A stretch of DNA of 24,559 nucleotides, taken from the UHGV virus genome UHGV-0135335, one strand, 5' to 3'. The position numbers and the translations under genes are program-made. This document shows, one piece after another, positions 6,138 to 24,261 of the stretch (its first letter is position 1; each line of letters starts with the position of its first letter). The notes below the pieces were generated by a model. It worked only from the letters and a program-made list of their open reading frames with translations. It made no database searches and was not told the origin of the DNA. Source of the DNA: a virus.

Positions 6138-6485
6138 ATGGCTGGAAAATCTAAAAAAGATGCCGGTGCAGACACCACAACTTCCGTTGATGGTGGTGAT
6201 GCGATTATTGATACCGCCAATATTGTCGACGGTGTGATTTCTGCTGATGCGATCACCGGTGATGAAATTGGGACCGTGGTCCCAGCGGTTAAATCCGCGC
6301 CGGAACGTCGCGCTGTTGTGTTCCTGGGGCCATATCATCGCTATTCGCGCGCTGATGTCGCTGCATTCGATGCTGAATACGCTGAAGAGCTGGTTACGCG
6401 CAAAATTGCAGCCTGGCCAGAAGATGCGAAGCGTGCGTTGAATCCTCGTTGGGGAGACGATGACCATGAAACCGACATTGGATGA
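6138..6485 (+). CDS. Hypothetical acidic protein (Asp/Gly/Ala-rich N-terminus)
   Basis: ATG 6138 with GGAG at 6127-6130. 115 aa. Contains palindrome copy 2 within its coding sequence (EIGTVVPAV). Confidence 0.5.
   Translation: MAGKSKKDAGADTTTSVDGGDAIIDTANIVDGVISADAITGDEIGTVVPAVKSAPERRAVVFLGPYHRYSRADVAAFDAEYAEELVTRKIAAWPEDAKRALNPRWGDDDHETDIG
6269..6284. other. Putative SopB-binding centromere-like palindrome, copy 2 (TGGGACCGTGGTCCCA)
   Basis: 16-bp inverted repeat inside the 6138-6485 ORF. Confidence 0.7.
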
Positions 6486-12786: not shown

Positions 12787-12804
12787 TTGGGACCATGGTC
12801 CCAA
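12787..12804. other. Putative SopB-binding centromere-like palindrome, copy 3 (TTGGGACCATGGTCCCAA, perfect 18-bp palindrome)
   Basis: Intergenic, lying between the moron terminator and the gpL Shine-Dalgarno sequence. Confidence 0.7.
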
Positions 12805-14935: not shown

Positions 14936-17900
14936 ATGGAAATTACAGGCGCAAAAGGTGGCGGCGGCAGCGGAAGTAGCGATAAAGGCGAGAACCGCGG
15001 TACCGAGATCGCTTCAGTTGCTTACATGAAGATATTACTGGCGCTGACCGAGGGGGAAGCCGCCGGCGGATTCTCAGGCCAGGATATTTATCTCGATGGT
15101 ACGCCGCTGCTGGATGATTCCGGGAATGCAAACTTCCCAGGCGTTACCTGGGAATGGCGTAGCGGGACTGTCGACCAGCCATATATTTCCGGCTTTCCTG
15201 CTGTAGAAAATGAAGTGGCCGTTTCTACGGAGCTGAAGTACGGGACGCCGTGGGTTAAGTCGATTAACAACACGCAGCTCTCAGCCGTTCGTCTGCGCCT
15301 GAAATTCCCGAATGGCCTGTATGAACTGCGAGACTCAGGTGGGAAGAGTGGTTATACCGTTGAGTTTGCCATTGATATCTCAACTGATGGCAGTTCCTAT
15401 GTCGAATACGGGCGGGATACCGCAAGCGGTATTGCTAATAACGGCTATGAGCGTAGCTATCGAATTGAGCTGCCACCGGCGCAGACTGGCTGGCAAATTC
15501 GCGTAAGACGCCTTACACCAAACGCCAATGATGCCCGGCACGCCGATACATCCCGGATCGAATCGATAACCGATATCGTTGATGCCAAATTGCGGTATCC
15601 CCATACCTCGCTGCTGTTCGTCCAGTTCGATTCTCAGTTGTTCGATGGTCGTACGCCGACAGTAACGATAAAAATGAAGGGGATCATCGTTCGCGTTCCA
15701 TCGAACTATGACCCGATCAACCGGACGTATAGCGGTACGTGGGACGGGACGTTTAAATGGGCATGGACGAACAACCCGGCCTGGATTTTTTACGACATCG
15801 TGACGAATGCCCGGTACGGCCTTGGTCGCCGCATAACGACAAACCTCGTTGATAAATGGACGCTCTACCAGATTGCTCAGTACTGCGATGCGAAGGTTTC
15901 TGACGGCGCAGGAGGCACAGAAGCGCGTCATCTTTGTGACCTGTACATTTCACAGAGAACCGACGCCTGGACGGTCCTGATGGATTTGGCGGCGATTTTC
16001 AGGGGGATGATCAGCTGGTCGAATAATCTGCTTTCGCTTGATGCCGATATGCCGCGCGAGCTGGACCCGGACTTTGTCTTCAACAAGTCCAATATTGTCG
16101 GTTCGTTCAACTTCTCCAGCTCATCCGAGCGTACCAACTATTCTGCGGCGATAGTGACTTACAGCAACCCGAACAACGGCTACAACGATGATCAGGCCAG
16201 CGTTCACGTACCTGAAGTCTCTTCGCGATTTGGTTTCAATACGATGGAAATGACTGCCGTCGGCTGCACGCGCGAGAGTGAGGCGCAGCGCCGCGGGTTG
16301 TGGGGTATCGAGACGAACCGCGATGATAATGCGGTTGAGTTCAAAACAGGCATGGAAGGCCGTATTCCGAGGGTTGGCAAAGTGATCGGCGTGAATAACG
16401 CACCACTGGCCGGACGGGCGAACGGTGGCCGTGTAGCTGCAGCTGCAGGTACAAAAATCACGCTGGACAGAAATACCGTTGCCGTTCCCGGTAATCGCCT
16501 GATCATCAACCTGCCGACGGGAAAGGCCGAAGGACGAACGATTAAGTCAGTATCTGGCCGCGCGGTCACTGTGGAATCTGCATACAGCGTATTACCTAAC
16601 GCTGAGTCGGCGTGGGTAATTGACCAGCAGGATCTGGCCATCCAGTTATTCAGGGTTCGCCGTGTGGCCATCGGGAGTGATGACCTGGTAACAATATCCG
16701 GGTTGCCCTATAACCCGAACAAATTCGCGAAAATTGATGATGGCGCGATTGTCGAAGACCGTCCTGTGACCGTGGTCCCACCTGGTAGCCAGTCTGTACC
16801 AACGAACATTGAAATCACCAGTGAATACCGAATTGTTCAGGGGATAGGTATAAACACCCTGGTCGCGACATGGGACCCGGTGATAAACGCCATCGCCTAC
16901 GAGGTGCAATGGCGCCAGAATAGCGGCGACTGGATTAATGCAGGCAGGACAGGAAATACCCGAATTGAGGTCGACGGTATTTATGCTGGCCGTTATGTCG
17001 TCCGCGTTCGGGCCATCAACGCGATGGATGTTGCCTCGGTATGGGCAGTATCAAAGGAAGTCCAGCTGGATGGAAAAATCGGAAAGCCGCCCGTTCCTGT
17101 CAATTTGAGAACAACCCCGATGCTATGGGGTATTCGTATTGACTGGTCTATTCCCGCAGGAGCTGAGGACTCGCTCTATACGGAGCTGCAGTATGCGCAG
17201 GAACGCGACGGCAATACGGCGCTATTGCTGAGCAATATTCCATATCCGCAGTCCACATATTCACAGATGGGCCTTCGTGCAGGGCAGGAGTTCTGGTATC
17301 GGGCGCGTCTTATCGACAAGATAGGAAACCCATCGGACTGGACTGGATGGGAGCGCGGTATTTCAAACGATAACTCAGGTGATTATCTGGAGGGGATCGG
17401 TGATGGTTTCCTGACCTCAAAAGACGGTGACGCGTTGACGAGTCAGATTGACCAGAATATCGAGGGGATTCTACAAAATGCGCAGGCGAATAATGCCACC
17501 ATCGATCACCAGTGGAAGCAATATGGAGAGGTTCGCGCTGATATCCTGATTGTCAAAACGACAATTGCCGATGTTGATAAAGCGATGGCCGAGCTATCGA
17601 CGACAGTTCAGGCCCAGGTTGATGATATTACGGCCACGCTGGAAGATAAACTGACAGCGGTTGTCGATGCTGATGGCGCCTCAGCAATTCATACGCTGAA
17701 AGTCGGCGTAAGAATTGGCGACCAATATTATGGTGCGGGGATGTCCGTTGCTGTTATTGCGGATGCTGGTCAGCCAGTAATAACCAGAATTGGATTTAAC
17801 GCAAATCAGTTTGTGCTGATGAGTGGTCTGGACGATAAGCAATATTCACCGTTTGCAGTGATTAACGGTCAGGTATTTATCAGTAGCGCATTTATTCAGG

Positions 17901-20490: not shown

Positions 20491-21672
20491 TCAAAGTATG
20501 TAGCGCTTGTTTATTTCATCGGCAATTTTCTTAATCCGCTCATTTTCAGTAGCTTCATCCTTCAGCACGGTTCTGGCGAACGGGATCAGGGCCAAAATTT
20601 CGTTGGCGGGAATATCGTATTCCAAGCCTGTAGCCGCAGCACGGATGTAGTTGGTCACATCATTAATTTCTAAAAATGCCTCATCCACTGCTTCACCAAC
20701 CGATTTTTGCTGCTCGGCCTGGTGAGCTTCCAGCAGTTCCTCAATCTTCTGTACTAACGCTGGCGGTACGTTGCTCAGTTGGAAGGATACAGAATCCCCC
20801 TTGTACTTCGCTTTTATCCCTTTACCAAACAGGCGTTCACGCATTGCAGGTTTTACTGGTTTTTGCGCCACCTGGTGTAGCTGGTCAAGAATGTCATCGG
20901 TTTCGAGCTGTTCACCAGCACGCTTACGCTTGGCCAGATGCTGAGCAAACGCAAACATCGCCTCTTCATTCTCGGCATAGGCTTTTGCCAGTGCCTCACC
21001 AGCTCGGGCGCTCAGTTCGTTAGGGTTACGGAACAGGCTAATAATTTCGCGTGGTAGCTCTGCCGTCTTCATGCAGCGGACGATAATTTTTCGGGAGATA
21101 TTCTCAGCTTCGGCCAGCTTGCTGACTGTACCGCCGAACTCATTGGCCAGACGGCGAGCATAGCGCTTTCCGCGCTCGTAAGAGCTGGTCTGCCGGTAGT
21201 CGTTCCCGATCTGTGATAGCCAGGCCATTTGTTCGTCGTCCAGCTCGCCGACGAGAACGCGGTATTCAGAGCTGGTGTAAATGGCTGTCTGGCGGCGGCG
21301 GCTACCGTCGGCCACTTCAATAATGCCAGAGATTTTACGGCCAAATGCTGGGTTCTGTTGCCCGGACGCGAGGAATGACGGGATCAGATCATCCAGCGCA
21401 TCTTTTGTCAGCAGTGCCTGGTCTCGTTCATTTCCGCCCCAGACCATGGTCGCCTTTTCCACCATGTTCGCATCGACGGTTTCCAGTTTGAACGACACAT
21501 CCCGCCCACAGACCGGAAGCGTGATATGGTTCCCGGTCATCCCGCGGACGCGTTCACTGAGGTTAGCCACCGCCGGCGCAGCTGGTTTATGCGCGTCATC
21601 ATGGCGTGGGACCGCGGTCACAGTGTCCAGATTGATTTGTGGTGCGTTTTTCATTACTGGTGCGCGTTTCAT
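20491..21672 (-). CDS. sopB: Partition protein SopB (ParB family)
   Basis: From MKRAPV the product aligns closely with F-plasmid SopB as recalled (LPVCGRDV, GNERDQ, DALDDLIPSF, ADGSRRR, YRVLVGELDDEQM, AENISRKII). ATG overlaps the sopA stop (ATGA). About 70 aa longer at the C-terminus than F SopB. Confidence 0.85.
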   Translation of the reverse strand: MKRAPVMKNAPQINLDTVTAVPRHDDAHKPAAPAVANLSERVRGMTGNHITLPVCGRDVSFKLETVDANMVEKATMVWGGNERDQALLTKDALDDLIPSFLASGQQNPAFGRKISGIIEVADGSRRRQTAIYTSSEYRVLVGELDDEQMAWLSQIGNDYRQTSSYERGKRYARRLANEFGGTVSKLAEAENISRKIIVRCMKTAELPREIISLFRNPNELSARAGEALAKAYAENEEAMFAFAQHLAKRKRAGEQLETDDILDQLHQVAQKPVKPAMRERLFGKGIKAKYKGDSVSFQLSNVPPALVQKIEELLEAHQAEQQKSVGEAVDEAFLEINDVTNYIRAAATGLEYDIPANEILALIPFARTVLKDEATENERIKKIADEINKRYIL

Positions 21673-22838
21673 TTGTTGTTCTCCCAGCGAGTAGCAATCA
21701 GGCGATCGTAAATTTCCCGGCAAACCGGCTCCCAGATAGCGACGGCATTGCGCCAGGCGGTAGGCGTGCTACGTTGGTTTGCAGCCTGCTCAAACACGGT
21801 GCGCATGCGTACCTGGCCTTTACCTACTTCGTCTGTTACGCGGACAACTTCCTTCAGCACCATGCCGCCCCAGGCGTTGCGGATCTGCTCATCCATCCAG
21901 GCAGATTGGTTGCCGACGGCTGTGCTGTATTTAGTTACCAGAACGCGGACATCAGGTTCAAAGCCGCCAAGGTCGACGTTGGCCATCAGGTCGCGAAGCA
22001 TCGTGAAGAACTGAAGAGAGGAAACGTAGTCGTACAGTTCAGCTGGTGTAGGCACAACGATCACATCAGCAGCGCATACGACGTTTATTGTGCCTATGCC
22101 GAGGTTTGGGGCGCTATCAATAACAATCAGGTCGTAGCTATCCCAGACAGACTCGATAGCGGCGCGCAGAAGCAGGTGAGATGCCACCGGCAAGCGACCT
22201 TCTTTCTCCAGTACCTCGATCTCTGATTCGATGCGGTGAATGGCCAGACAGGACGGGATGATATCGAGGTTCGGCCAGCAGGTTGGCTTAATCGCGTATT
22301 CAGCGTTATCACGTTCGCCCAGGTAGTACGGCAGCAGCGTATCTTCTGCGTGGATATGCAGATCAGGGACGTAGCCATGGTACAAACTGGCGGTTGCCTG
22401 TGGGTCAGTCGCATCAATCAGCAGAACGCGAAGGCCCTGCAGTGCAGCCCATTGCGCCATATGTACGCTGGTCGACGTTTTGTATGCGCCACCCTTATGC
22501 GCGGCAATAGCCAGTACAACCGGCGATTGGCCTTCAGGTCGAGACGGACGGGTACCAAAGTGATCGCGCATGGAGTTGATTTGCTCGATGGTATAGCCGG
22601 CACGTTGTGGAACGCGACCGCGAGTCACCATATCAGCCGGCGGCAGTCGCCCACCATCTTCTGCATTGCGAATAGATTGCGGTGTAACACCGATCAGCTC
22701 TGCCGCTTCAGTAATGCCCCAGCGGCGAGTGATGGCGCGAGACTCAGGGCTATCATCGCCAAATTGGGCCTGTGCGATAGCCATTGTCATGGCATGGCCA
22801 CGAGAAATCAGTTCATCCAAACGCGATTTTAAATTCAC
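21669..22838 (-). CDS. sopA: Partition ATPase SopA (ParA family, Walker-type)
   Basis: Aligns along its whole length with F SopA as recalled (AAHKGGAYKTSTSVH deviant Walker A, HAEDTLLPYYLGE, VIDSAPNLGIGTINVVCAADV, VFEQA). GTG start at 22838 is preceded by GGAGAG with a 7-nt spacer. The track ORF extends further, to TTG 22913. Confidence 0.85.
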   Translation of the reverse strand: MNLKSRLDELISRGHAMTMAIAQAQFGDDSPESRAITRRWGITEAAELIGVTPQSIRNAEDGGRLPPADMVTRGRVPQRAGYTIEQINSMRDHFGTRPSRPEGQSPVVLAIAAHKGGAYKTSTSVHMAQWAALQGLRVLLIDATDPQATASLYHGYVPDLHIHAEDTLLPYYLGERDNAEYAIKPTCWPNLDIIPSCLAIHRIESEIEVLEKEGRLPVASHLLLRAAIESVWDSYDLIVIDSAPNLGIGTINVVCAADVIVVPTPAELYDYVSSLQFFTMLRDLMANVDLGGFEPDVRVLVTKYSTAVGNQSAWMDEQIRNAWGGMVLKEVVRVTDEVGKGQVRMRTVFEQAANQRSTPTAWRNAVAIWEPVCREIYDRLIATRWENNK

Positions 22839-22856
22839 TTTCGTACTCTCCGGTAA

Positions 22857-22896
22857 CTTTGCGTAAAAACAGTAAAGCACCAAAAAAGACGCAAAG
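22857..22896. promoter_or_regulatory. Putative sopAB promoter/operator: CTTTGCGT ... ACGCAAAG inverted repeat
   Basis: 8-bp perfect inverted repeat with 24-bp spacing, 20-60 bp upstream of the sopA start. The CTTTGC hexamer is recalled as the SopA autoregulatory site in F. Confidence 0.45.
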
Positions 22897-22951
22897 CAAC
22901 ACAATTTATGCAAAATCCCTTAAAAAAAGATTTTCACAATGACAATCACAA

Positions 22952-22990
22952 CCGTACATCATACGGACAAAACATCCGTACAATGTACGG
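22952..22990. promoter_or_regulatory. Paired palindromes CCGTACAtcaTACGG and CCGTACA-A-TGTACGG (putative operator)
   Basis: Two inverted repeats sharing the CCGTACA half-site, 9 bp apart, in the sopA-TA intergenic region. Followed by the direct repeat TTGATTGA (22994-23001 and 23007-23014). Confidence 0.4.
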
Positions 22991-23232
22991 CTTTGATTGA
23001 CAAAAATTGATTGATGTGTGACCATATGAAGGTTGCAACGAGCTTCAAACATGTATTTAGTCAGTAAGCAATCTATTCATTCATTAGTTAAAGTATTGAT
23101 TTATTAAGAAAACAATAGAGGAATATTAAATGATCAGAGGAACAATCAATCGCGGGGCGGGCAGATACCGATGAACAAGATAAGGAGGCAACCCACTTAA
23201 AAACCAATGTTTGATTTTTGGAGATTTTGATT

Positions 23233-23553
23233 ATGAGAAACACCTACGTAAGTGGTGGTTCCGCAAACGTTGCTTTGGCCGGTGCCAAAGACACGCGCGT
23301 CGAGCTGCGAACCAGCGTCGACATAAAAGAGAAGTTACGAGCAGCCGCTTCTCTGGCTGGGGTAGACATGAGTTCGTTTATTTTGATGGCTGCTACACAG
23401 GCGGCACAGCGCGCTATTGATGCAGAACGCATGCGCGTAGTGACCGCAAGCGAGTGGGCACAACTAAATGAAATCCTGAATACCCCTCATCAGCCAGGCG
23501 ATAAGCTGCGAAACCTGATGACGAGGGAACCTAGGTATGAACGAAAGTACTGA
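23233..23553 (+). CDS. Type II antitoxin, DUF1778 / TacA-like (ribbon-helix-helix)
   Basis: 106-aa product with the usual DUF1778 pattern (LR.S...EKL..AA...G...S.FIL.AA). GGAG then ATG 23233. Overlaps the downstream GNAT gene by 17 nt. Confidence 0.7.
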   Translation: MRNTYVSGGSANVALAGAKDTRVELRTSVDIKEKLRAAASLAGVDMSSFILMAATQAAQRAIDAERMRVVTASEWAQLNEILNTPHQPGDKLRNLMTREPRYERKY

Positions 23554-24091
23554 TGTAAAAATGCAGTTGGTGAAGTGCGGCCCAGAAACAGAAATGAAAG
23601 GGGTAAAAGCCTTCGACTGCGGGGATAGTGTAATTAACAAGTTCGTCCCACAGCTAAAGCGGCAGTGTGGTCGTGACAACATCAACGCATTATTACTGCT
23701 TGATGGGGATAAAAACTTAGTAGGTTTTGCCACGGCCACGCTTTATCAGCTGGGGCGGGAGAGCATCCCGGAAGACACTTATCCGTACGCGCTTCCGCCT
23801 GCAATAGCGGTGATGAAAATCCCCATGATTGCCATCGATAAAAAACTACAAAGGCAAGGCTGGGGGCACGATATTTTACGTGCAATTCTTGATTACAGCG
23901 TCGAAAGCGCTGATTTAGTGAGGGGCATCAAAGGGGTTTACCTCGATGCAAAAATAGAGGCTCGATCGTTTTATGAGAGCTTCGAATTTAGGGCTACCAG
24001 CGAAAGTGTTAGCGAGCATGGCACTATCCCAATGCTTATCCCTATGGATATCCTCCGCGAGAGTCAGAAGAGCTGGGAGCAGTCTGCATAA
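23537..24091 (+). CDS. GNAT-family acetyltransferase toxin (TacT/KacT/AtaT-like)
   Basis: 184 aa with an acetyl-CoA-binding-like segment IAIDKKLQRQGWGHDILRAIL. Gene order is antitoxin then overlapping toxin. Confidence 0.7.
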   Translation: MNESTDVKMQLVKCGPETEMKGVKAFDCGDSVINKFVPQLKRQCGRDNINALLLLDGDKNLVGFATATLYQLGRESIPEDTYPYALPPAIAVMKIPMIAIDKKLQRQGWGHDILRAILDYSVESADLVRGIKGVYLDAKIEARSFYESFEFRATSESVSEHGTIPMLIPMDILRESQKSWEQSA

Positions 24092-24121
24092 AAGCGGCTG
24101 ACGCAAAAGCCAGGAATTAAC

Positions 24122-24149
24122 GAAAGAGCCACCTTTGGGTGGCTCTTTC
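24122..24149 (+). terminator. Strong hairpin after toxin gene (terminator-like)
   Basis: GAAAGAGCCACC-tttg-GGTGGCTCTTTC, a 12-bp perfect stem. The T-tract lies partly within the stem. Confidence 0.5.
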
Positions 24150-24261
24150 GGTTCTGGGTAGCCAAATACAACGTACAGCGCGAAGCGCTGTGGAAGCATA
24201 AGATAAATCAAAACAGCACCAAAAGGTGCAATGTTGATATGAGTGGCTAAAAGCGACAATA

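Follow-up and report, generated by a model that had tools for sequence, protein, structure and literature searches.

A Probable F-Type SopA Operator in the Inverted Repeat Upstream of sopA in an N15/PY54-Like Linear Phage-Plasmid

The Partition Operon and Its Surroundings

The DNA analysed here (the window) is the whole 24,559-nt stretch of the virus genome UHGV-0135335. Judged by its genes, it makes up the left arm of a linear phage-plasmid ("telomere phage") that is N15/PY54-like and whose protelomerase gene and tel site would lie outside the window. The plus strand carries the genes for the large terminase (TerL), the tape-measure protein, and a gpJ-like tip protein, and these precede sopBA on the minus strand; this position of sopBA after the tail genes matches the order in PY54 and in N15, a telomere phage of the same element family. 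The partition genes and the centromere-type sites are the following:

20491-21672, minus strand: sopB (ParB, 393 aa), Pfam SoPB_HTH
21669-22838, minus strand: sopA (type Ia ParA, 389 aa, GTG start), 70% identical to F SopA over 386 aa, Pfam AAA_31/CbiA
574-589, no strand assigned: sopC-type centromere palindrome TGGGACCACGGTCCCA, the first of five dispersed copies, a presumed SopB loading site
6269-6284, 12788-12803, 16765-16780, and 21607-21622: the other four sopC-type palindromes

The sopB ATG overlaps the sopA stop codon (ATGA), and the 393-aa SopB product is also called in contigs that encode the same SopA. The SopA of the window is 72% identical to N15 gp28, 84% to PY54 SpyA, and 93% to its counterpart in pAR-0403, which represents linear Salmonella plasmids of ~49 kb. 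Over the first 106 aa, identity is 63% with F and 62% with N15, and the helix-turn-helix (HTH) and wing segments ITRRW, GV..Q.IR..E, RGRV, and GYTI are invariant in F, N15, PY54, pAR-0403, and the window, which fits an unchanged DNA specificity of SopA. The exact 389-aa protein is encoded by 19 public contigs from metagenomes or read archives; in two of these contigs, each ~49 kb long, sopA lies ~2 kb from an end.

Neither the plasmid and phage collections nor the complete E. coli genomes contained DNA nearly identical to the sop region, and the intergenic region, searched in distant mode against plasmids, likewise had no match; the relatives discussed below were found through the SopA protein and not through DNA. 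Upstream regions of sopA were pooled from F (NC_002483.1), N15, PY54, pAR-0403, 46 IMG/VR loci, and four of five genome loci, the fifth (L056) being left out because it gave only a distant ParA match. The pool contained 44 distinct sequences from phages, plasmids, and genomes.

The five 16-bp palindromes TGGGACCNNGGTCCCA (three perfect, two with one mismatch) compare with 0.05 matches expected in the window when up to one mismatch is allowed. The copy at 21607-21622 falls inside the 5' end of sopB, and the one at 574-589 is identical to the core of F sopC. Dispersed in the window, as opposed to the tandem sopC array of F, these palindromes are probably centromere (SopB) sites of the N15 style. 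The whole F/N15-type partition apparatus thus appears to be present, including the SopB loading sites, which in F strengthen repression.

Divergently from sopA, the plus strand encodes a TacA-like antitoxin (DUF1778, RHH; 23218/23233-23553) and a GNAT acetyltransferase toxin (23537-24091). In relatives the same slot is occupied by icd (PY54, pAR-0403) or by a RES-domain gene (L097 and L098), so that it holds variable cargo beside the partition operon. The DNA that separates the sop promoter from the divergent TacA/TacT pair includes a 28-nt imperfect inverted repeat (22940-23002) with the 15-bp palindromes CCGTACATCATACGG (22952-22966) and CCGTACAATGTACGG (22976-22990), adjoined by a conserved TTGACA (22997-23002, plus strand). 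The GTACGG motifs of these palindromes are kept in the diverged, TacAT-carrying locus L099 and are missing in L097 and L098, which lack TacAT; the palindromes are more likely an operator or promoter of the TacAT side than a part of sop control. A role of the 22952-22990 palindromes as sop control, centromere, or telomere sites was considered and rejected, as they occur once in the window and accompany TacAT, not sopA. A 15-mer scan of viral contigs for them returned scattered, unrelated matches. In the long tacA leader, positions 23117-23175 (plus strand) carry the direct repeat AGAGGAATATTAAAT / AGAGGAACAATCAAT, 19 nt apart, and a 14-codon open reading frame (ATG 23131 to TGA 23175) that follows the first AGAGGA, upstream of tacA. 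Just past the GNAT toxin gene, a perfect palindrome with a 13-bp stem (CGAAAGAGCCACC-TTTG-GGTGGCTCTTTCG, 24121-24150) probably serves as a bidirectional intrinsic terminator.

The Inverted Repeat and the Predicted sopA Promoter

Since sopA is on the minus strand, its upstream side is that of the higher coordinates. Read on the plus strand, the left arm of the repeat, CTTTGCGT, lies at 22857-22864 and the right arm, ACGCAAAG, at 22889-22896. The earlier note on this DNA had described a perfect 8-bp inverted pair located 20-60 bp upstream of the sopA GTG. Reading of the sequence and the repeat finder (pair I5) agree on the pair, with arms of 8 nt, 100% complementarity, and a gap of 24 nt, and its computed position is 19-58 nt upstream of the GTG (22838-22836, minus strand).

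Taken simply as an 8-bp inverted repeat, the pair stands out only a little: the window has ~0.28 perfect repeats of this length, with gaps of up to 40 nt, per 160 nt, and shuffling the 160-nt upstream region yields one in about 5% of cases. The significance of the repeat therefore comes from its specific motif, spacing, position, and conservation, not from palindromy. The pattern CTTTGCGT-N10-40-ACGCAAAG has a single occurrence in the window, and 100 dinucleotide shuffles yielded none. Seen as hexamers on the sopA sense strand, the repeat is CTTTGC-N28-GCAAAG with zero mismatches, the single occurrence of this arrangement in the 24.5-kb window even when one mismatch is allowed. CTTTGC itself is not enriched in the window (9 copies, 17 expected), and the two operator copies are the sole exact ones within ~6 kb. 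The half-sites are 28 bp apart and 34 bp from centre to centre, which puts them roughly on one helix face; such a pair of spaced hexamers describes the functional unit better than the 8-bp arms do.

The sense strand of the region reads gggaTTTTGCataaattgtgTTGCTTTGCgtcttttttggtgcTTTACTgtttttacGCAAAGttaccGGAGAGtacgaaaGTG, and its elements are listed below, with the hexamers numbered as in F:

22910-22915, minus strand: equivalent of hexamer #2, TTTTGC, in direct orientation 13 bp upstream of #3, an interval that matches F
22894-22899, minus strand: predicted -35 box TTGCTT, inferred by alignment, overlapping hexamer #3
22891-22896, minus strand: hexamer #3, CTTTGC (sense), the promoter-distal half-site, aligned with F hexamer #3
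22871-22876, minus strand: predicted -10 box TTTACT, 17 bp past the -35 box and inside the 28-bp spacer
22857-22862, minus strand: hexamer #4, GCAAAG (sense), the promoter-proximal half-site 28 bp past #3, aligned with F ACGCAAAG
22846-22851, minus strand: Shine-Dalgarno sequence GGAGAG, 7 nt before the GTG

The right arm (22889-22896) is thus hexamer #3 plus GT, and the left arm (22857-22864) is hexamer #4 plus AC. The block GTTGCTTTGC, which holds the -35 box and #3, is common to the window, F, N15, and PY54, and the published -35 box of F has this same position (PMC8465637). The -10 box TTTACT is invariant in all nine members of the PY54-like clade and in the contigs with the same SopA; the consensus promoter scanner made no call at this box because its position 2 is not A. 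Transcription is predicted to start at ~22864 (22863-22865), which would place the proximal half-site #4 at about +1. The TTTGC core of hexamer #2 is present in five of the nine clade members compared (the window, PY54 or L002, L008, L009, and L053). The F motifs #1 and #2' are absent from the window, their positions reading AAAATC and TGGTGC/GGTGCT, respectively. The predicted promoter and the operator together span 22857-22915.

The Start Codon of sopA

The long open reading frame of sopA opens at TTG 22913, 25 codons upstream of GTG 22838. In each of the other 43 distinct sequences the codon homologous to the GTG is ATG, and the N-termini are conserved (MNLK.RLDELI or close to it). In most of these 43 relatives an in-frame stop codon lies 6-51 nt upstream of the start, so that the 25-codon extension is not conserved. 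The TTG itself is part of hexamer #2, ahead of the -35 box, and only 2 nt separate it from an AGGGA. The earlier note had argued from the motif that the shorter start is the right one; the homologous ATG codons, the upstream stops, the Shine-Dalgarno sequence, and the 389-aa calls lead independently to the same choice, and GTG 22838 is supported as the start of sopA in place of TTG 22913.

The GTG is common to all contigs that encode the identical protein. In pAR-0403 (L001), the RefSeq start of sopA at 2011 lies 48 nt downstream of the conserved ATG (1963) and is probably mis-called.

Likeness to the F sopAB Promoter

In the same strand sense, the F promoter region reads gaCTTTGCgattttgttgTTGCTTTGCagtaaattgcaagaTTTAATaaaaaaacGCAAAGcaatgattaaAGGAtgttcagaATG. 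The two regions align without gaps, as GTTGCTTTGC-N14-TTTACT-N6-ACGCAAAG in the window and GTTGCTTTGC-N14-TTTAAT-N6-ACGCAAAG in F. The hexamer pair CTTTGC/GCAAAG and the 28-bp spacer of IR3-4 of the F promoter (PsopAB or PparABF) are identical in the window, as are the -35 box TTGCTT overlapping the distal hexamer and the 17-bp distance to the -10 box, and in both a direct upstream hexamer, in the window with one mismatch, stands at the 13-bp interval. The differences lie in the -10 box (TTTACT in the window, TTTAAT in F), in the GTG start of the window, in how far #4 is from the start codon (18 nt versus 22 nt in F), and in the arms, which are perfect over 8 bp in the window and over 6 in F. 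The window also has three hexamers (#2 being TTTTGC, with no #1 and no #2'), whereas F has four plus #2'.

The F operator is well described. It consists of direct CTTTGC hexamers #1-#3 at 13-bp intervals and an inverted #4 28 bp downstream (PMC8465637), and #3 and #4 form the perfect inverted repeat IR3-4, which is the primary binding site of the ParA/SopA dimer (Boudsocq et al. 2021, PMC8465637). In EMSA there was no shift without #4, and mutation of either motif abolished binding, while IR3-4 was enough to nucleate three dimers (PMC8465637). The SopA footprint of ~85 bp covers the -35 and -10 boxes, and SopB raises the affinity of SopA and has itself no specific affinity for the promoter (PMC8465637); the original DNase I footprints are cited in the same work, as are Mori et al. 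1989 and Komai et al. 2011 for the operator with IR3-4. The earlier note had named CTTTGC hexamers as the elements that SopA binds in the sopAB promoter of F, and this is correct (PMC8465637).

The repeat of the window is the positional homologue of F IR3-4. An alternative numbering, with TTTTGC as #1, CTTTGC as #2, CTTTAC as #3, and GCAAAG as #2', would make the repeat the weaker IR2-2'. It was rejected because the gap-free alignment with F registers GTTGCTTTGC (-35 and #3), the -10 box, and ACGCAAAG (#4). In that numbering #4 would be CGAAAG, which overlaps the GTG and which the relatives do not conserve.

Comparison with Other sop and par Promoters

The sop promoters of N15, phiKO2, and pLVPK have the same hexamer and 28-bp spacing as the window (Boudsocq et al. 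2021, Fig. 5C). These N15-type promoters keep #1, #2, #3, and #2' (GTAAAG) and have a degenerate #4 (ACAAAG or ATAAAG); in the window, by contrast, the #3/#4 pair is perfect, and #1 and #2' are missing. Their -10 box is TATGAT, and #4 is 27-29 nt from the ATG.

The closest relatives are the promoters of PY54 spyAB and of sopA on the Salmonella linear plasmid pAR-0403. They have the reduced layout GTTGCTTTGCGT-N10-xxTTTACT-N6-ACGCAAA and, like the window, a short distance to the start codon (15-18 nt). This layout, which has a single inverted repeat and one further half-site where F and N15 have more motifs, is common to PY54 and to the Salmonella, Serratia, and Yersinia plasmids of the same clade. 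In most PY54-type relatives #4 is GCAAAA (GCAAAC or GCAAAT in some), which leaves the repeat imperfect at its outermost base; only L008 among them keeps GCAAAG, and its #3 is CTTTAC. The repeat is thus perfect in the element of the window and its same-SopA variants and imperfect in the other clade members compared. Further differences of the PY54-type relatives are their starts, which are all ATG, and the DNA upstream of #2, which is unrelated, with icd in place of TacAT. No published study of the PY54-type operator came to light; the reduced layout is not among the 16 promoters treated in PMC8465637, where PY54 appears in neither the text nor the supplement.

The parA operators of P1 and P7 follow the same logic, with inverted hexamers 26-29 bp apart that overlap the promoter, a ParA dimer that binds through its N-terminal winged HTH, and ParB as enhancer. 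Their hexamers (TTATGC in P1, ACGTGC in P7) and the placement of these relative to the -35 and -10 boxes differ from the window, and their ParA proteins are much more distant. The window operator is, as these comparisons support, an F-type SopA operator, hence of a kind already understood, in a new N15/PY54-like phage-plasmid.

Conservation in Relatives and Other Explanations of the Repeat

When the 44 distinct upstream regions were anchored on their best CTTTGC/GCAAAG pair, the spacer was 28 bp in 43 of them and 29 bp in the remaining one. The -35 box was nearly always TTGCTT. Within the PY54-like clade (nine distinct sequences), the majority base had a mean frequency of 0.96 over the 21 positions of -35/#3, -10, and #4, against 0.77 in the intervening spacers, 0.83 in hexamer #2, and 0.53 upstream of #2. 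The contigs with identical SopA differ at just four promoter positions, all in the spacer. Across 18 distinct versions of the site, positions T2-T4 and C6 of the hexamer are invariant. The pooled consensus is (C/T)TTTGC(G)T, with T at position 8 in 76 of the 92 distinct sites; the 8-bp arms of the window match this extended consensus, to which the T-richness of the flanks could also contribute.

Two loci with identical SopA and an unrelated upstream module, L097 and L098, resume homology with the window exactly at TTTTGC of hexamer #2. The mosaic joint (22915-22920 in the window, ~2120-2214 in L097/L098) has the same position throughout, homology with every relative stopping directly upstream of #2. 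This break suggests that sopAB is exchanged as a single piece together with its promoter-operator cassette, which runs from #2 up to the start codon.

Conservation among the relatives partly reflects shared ancestry and promoter function and not repressor binding, and hexamer #3 and the -35 box cannot be separated by sequence alone. The repeat might then amount to a promoter core (-35, -10, and initiation region) with a fortuitous palindrome, to which nothing binds as such: hexamer #3 overlaps the -35 box, the -10 box lies between the arms, and at 0.28 per 160 nt generic repeats of this size are not rare. Against this, hexamer #4 lies downstream of the -10 box, where a sigma-70 promoter needs no specific sequence, and its GCAAA is nonetheless invariant in the clade and keeps its 28-bp distance from #3 in 43 of the 44 promoters. 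The same motif has been footprinted in F, where mutations show that SopA binding requires it, and a third copy stands at the F-like 13-bp interval. We consider it very unlikely that the repeat is promoter sequence and nothing else.

An RNA hairpin (attenuator, terminator, or processing site) would have to act in transcripts from an upstream promoter. N15 is reported to have a second, distal sop promoter (Dorokhov et al. 2003), and the operator could stand even if sopA had a further transcription start upstream. In principle an 8-bp stem could form, and a weak terminator-like call was obtained on the minus strand at 22892-22877. The sense RNA 22915-22836, however, folds with z = -1.43, equalled or bettered by 21 of 200 shuffles, and its minimum-energy fold does not contain the 8-bp pairing as drawn, in which the loop would measure 24 nt. 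Relatives show uncompensated changes at hexamer position 1 (CTTTGC/GCAAAA, CTTTGC/GCAAAC, TTTTGC/GCAAAT), and the predicted promoter would transcribe the proximal arm only. A functional hairpin is likewise very unlikely.

There is just as slight a chance that another protein (SopB, the divergently encoded TacA antitoxin, or a phage repressor) binds the repeat in place of SopA, since the intergenic region is indeed shared with the TacA/TacT pair and holds other palindromes, but the repeat is unchanged in L097 and L098, which have neither TacAT nor the GTACGG palindromes, so that the motif travels with sopA, it is found in F, N15, and PY54 without TacAT, and SopB lacks specific promoter affinity in F and has a different site, TGGGACC..GGTCCCA, elsewhere in the window.

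Proposed Mode of Repression

The inverted repeat is very probably the core autoregulatory operator of the sopAB (parAB) operon of this N15/PY54-like linear phage-plasmid, SopA binding and repression being inferred from the comparisons above. An autoregulatory operator of sopA had been put forward as a candidate in the earlier note, and the proposal gains support from the homology with F IR3-4, the overlap with the promoter, and the spacing conserved in 43 of 44 upstream regions. As proposed here, a single SopA dimer, apo or ADP-bound, would contact both half-sites, one with each of its two winged-HTH domains. The dimer would then span the -35 box, the -10 box, and the predicted start, and RNA polymerase would be excluded. 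More SopA dimers probably load cooperatively upstream, aided by TTTTGC (22915-22910), and SopB on the dispersed TGGGACC..GGTCCCA sites probably raises the affinity of SopA, as in F.

The three-dimer architecture of F may not apply in full here, because #1 and #2' have no counterpart in the window. IR3-4 of F alone nucleates binding, which makes the #1, #2, and #2' motifs accessory.

It is conceivable, if somewhat doubtful, that the PY54-like clade, including the element of the window, carries a naturally minimal SopA operator, and that the unit recognised is the octamer CTTTGC(G)T and not the hexamer. Such an operator may consist of one inverted repeat and a single upstream half-site, with no #1 or #2' and a leader of ~26 nt. 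The -10 box (xTTTAC) is itself hexamer-like and stands at the 19-bp repeat period. If the idea is true, either fewer than three SopA dimers would load or three would do so through non-specific contacts only, and the clade would offer a natural test of the F model in which IR3-4 nucleates and the rest is cooperative.

Conclusions

The comparisons fix the annotation of the locus, both for the start of sopA and for the extent of promoter and operator, and are useful for annotation, for the building of linear-plasmid vectors, and for studies of ParA autoregulation; the known mechanism is unchanged. The partition operon of this element is almost certainly autoregulated in the manner of F, and the F-type operator layout, described so far for F, pLVPK, N15, and phiKO2, would thereby extend to the PY54-like telomere phages.
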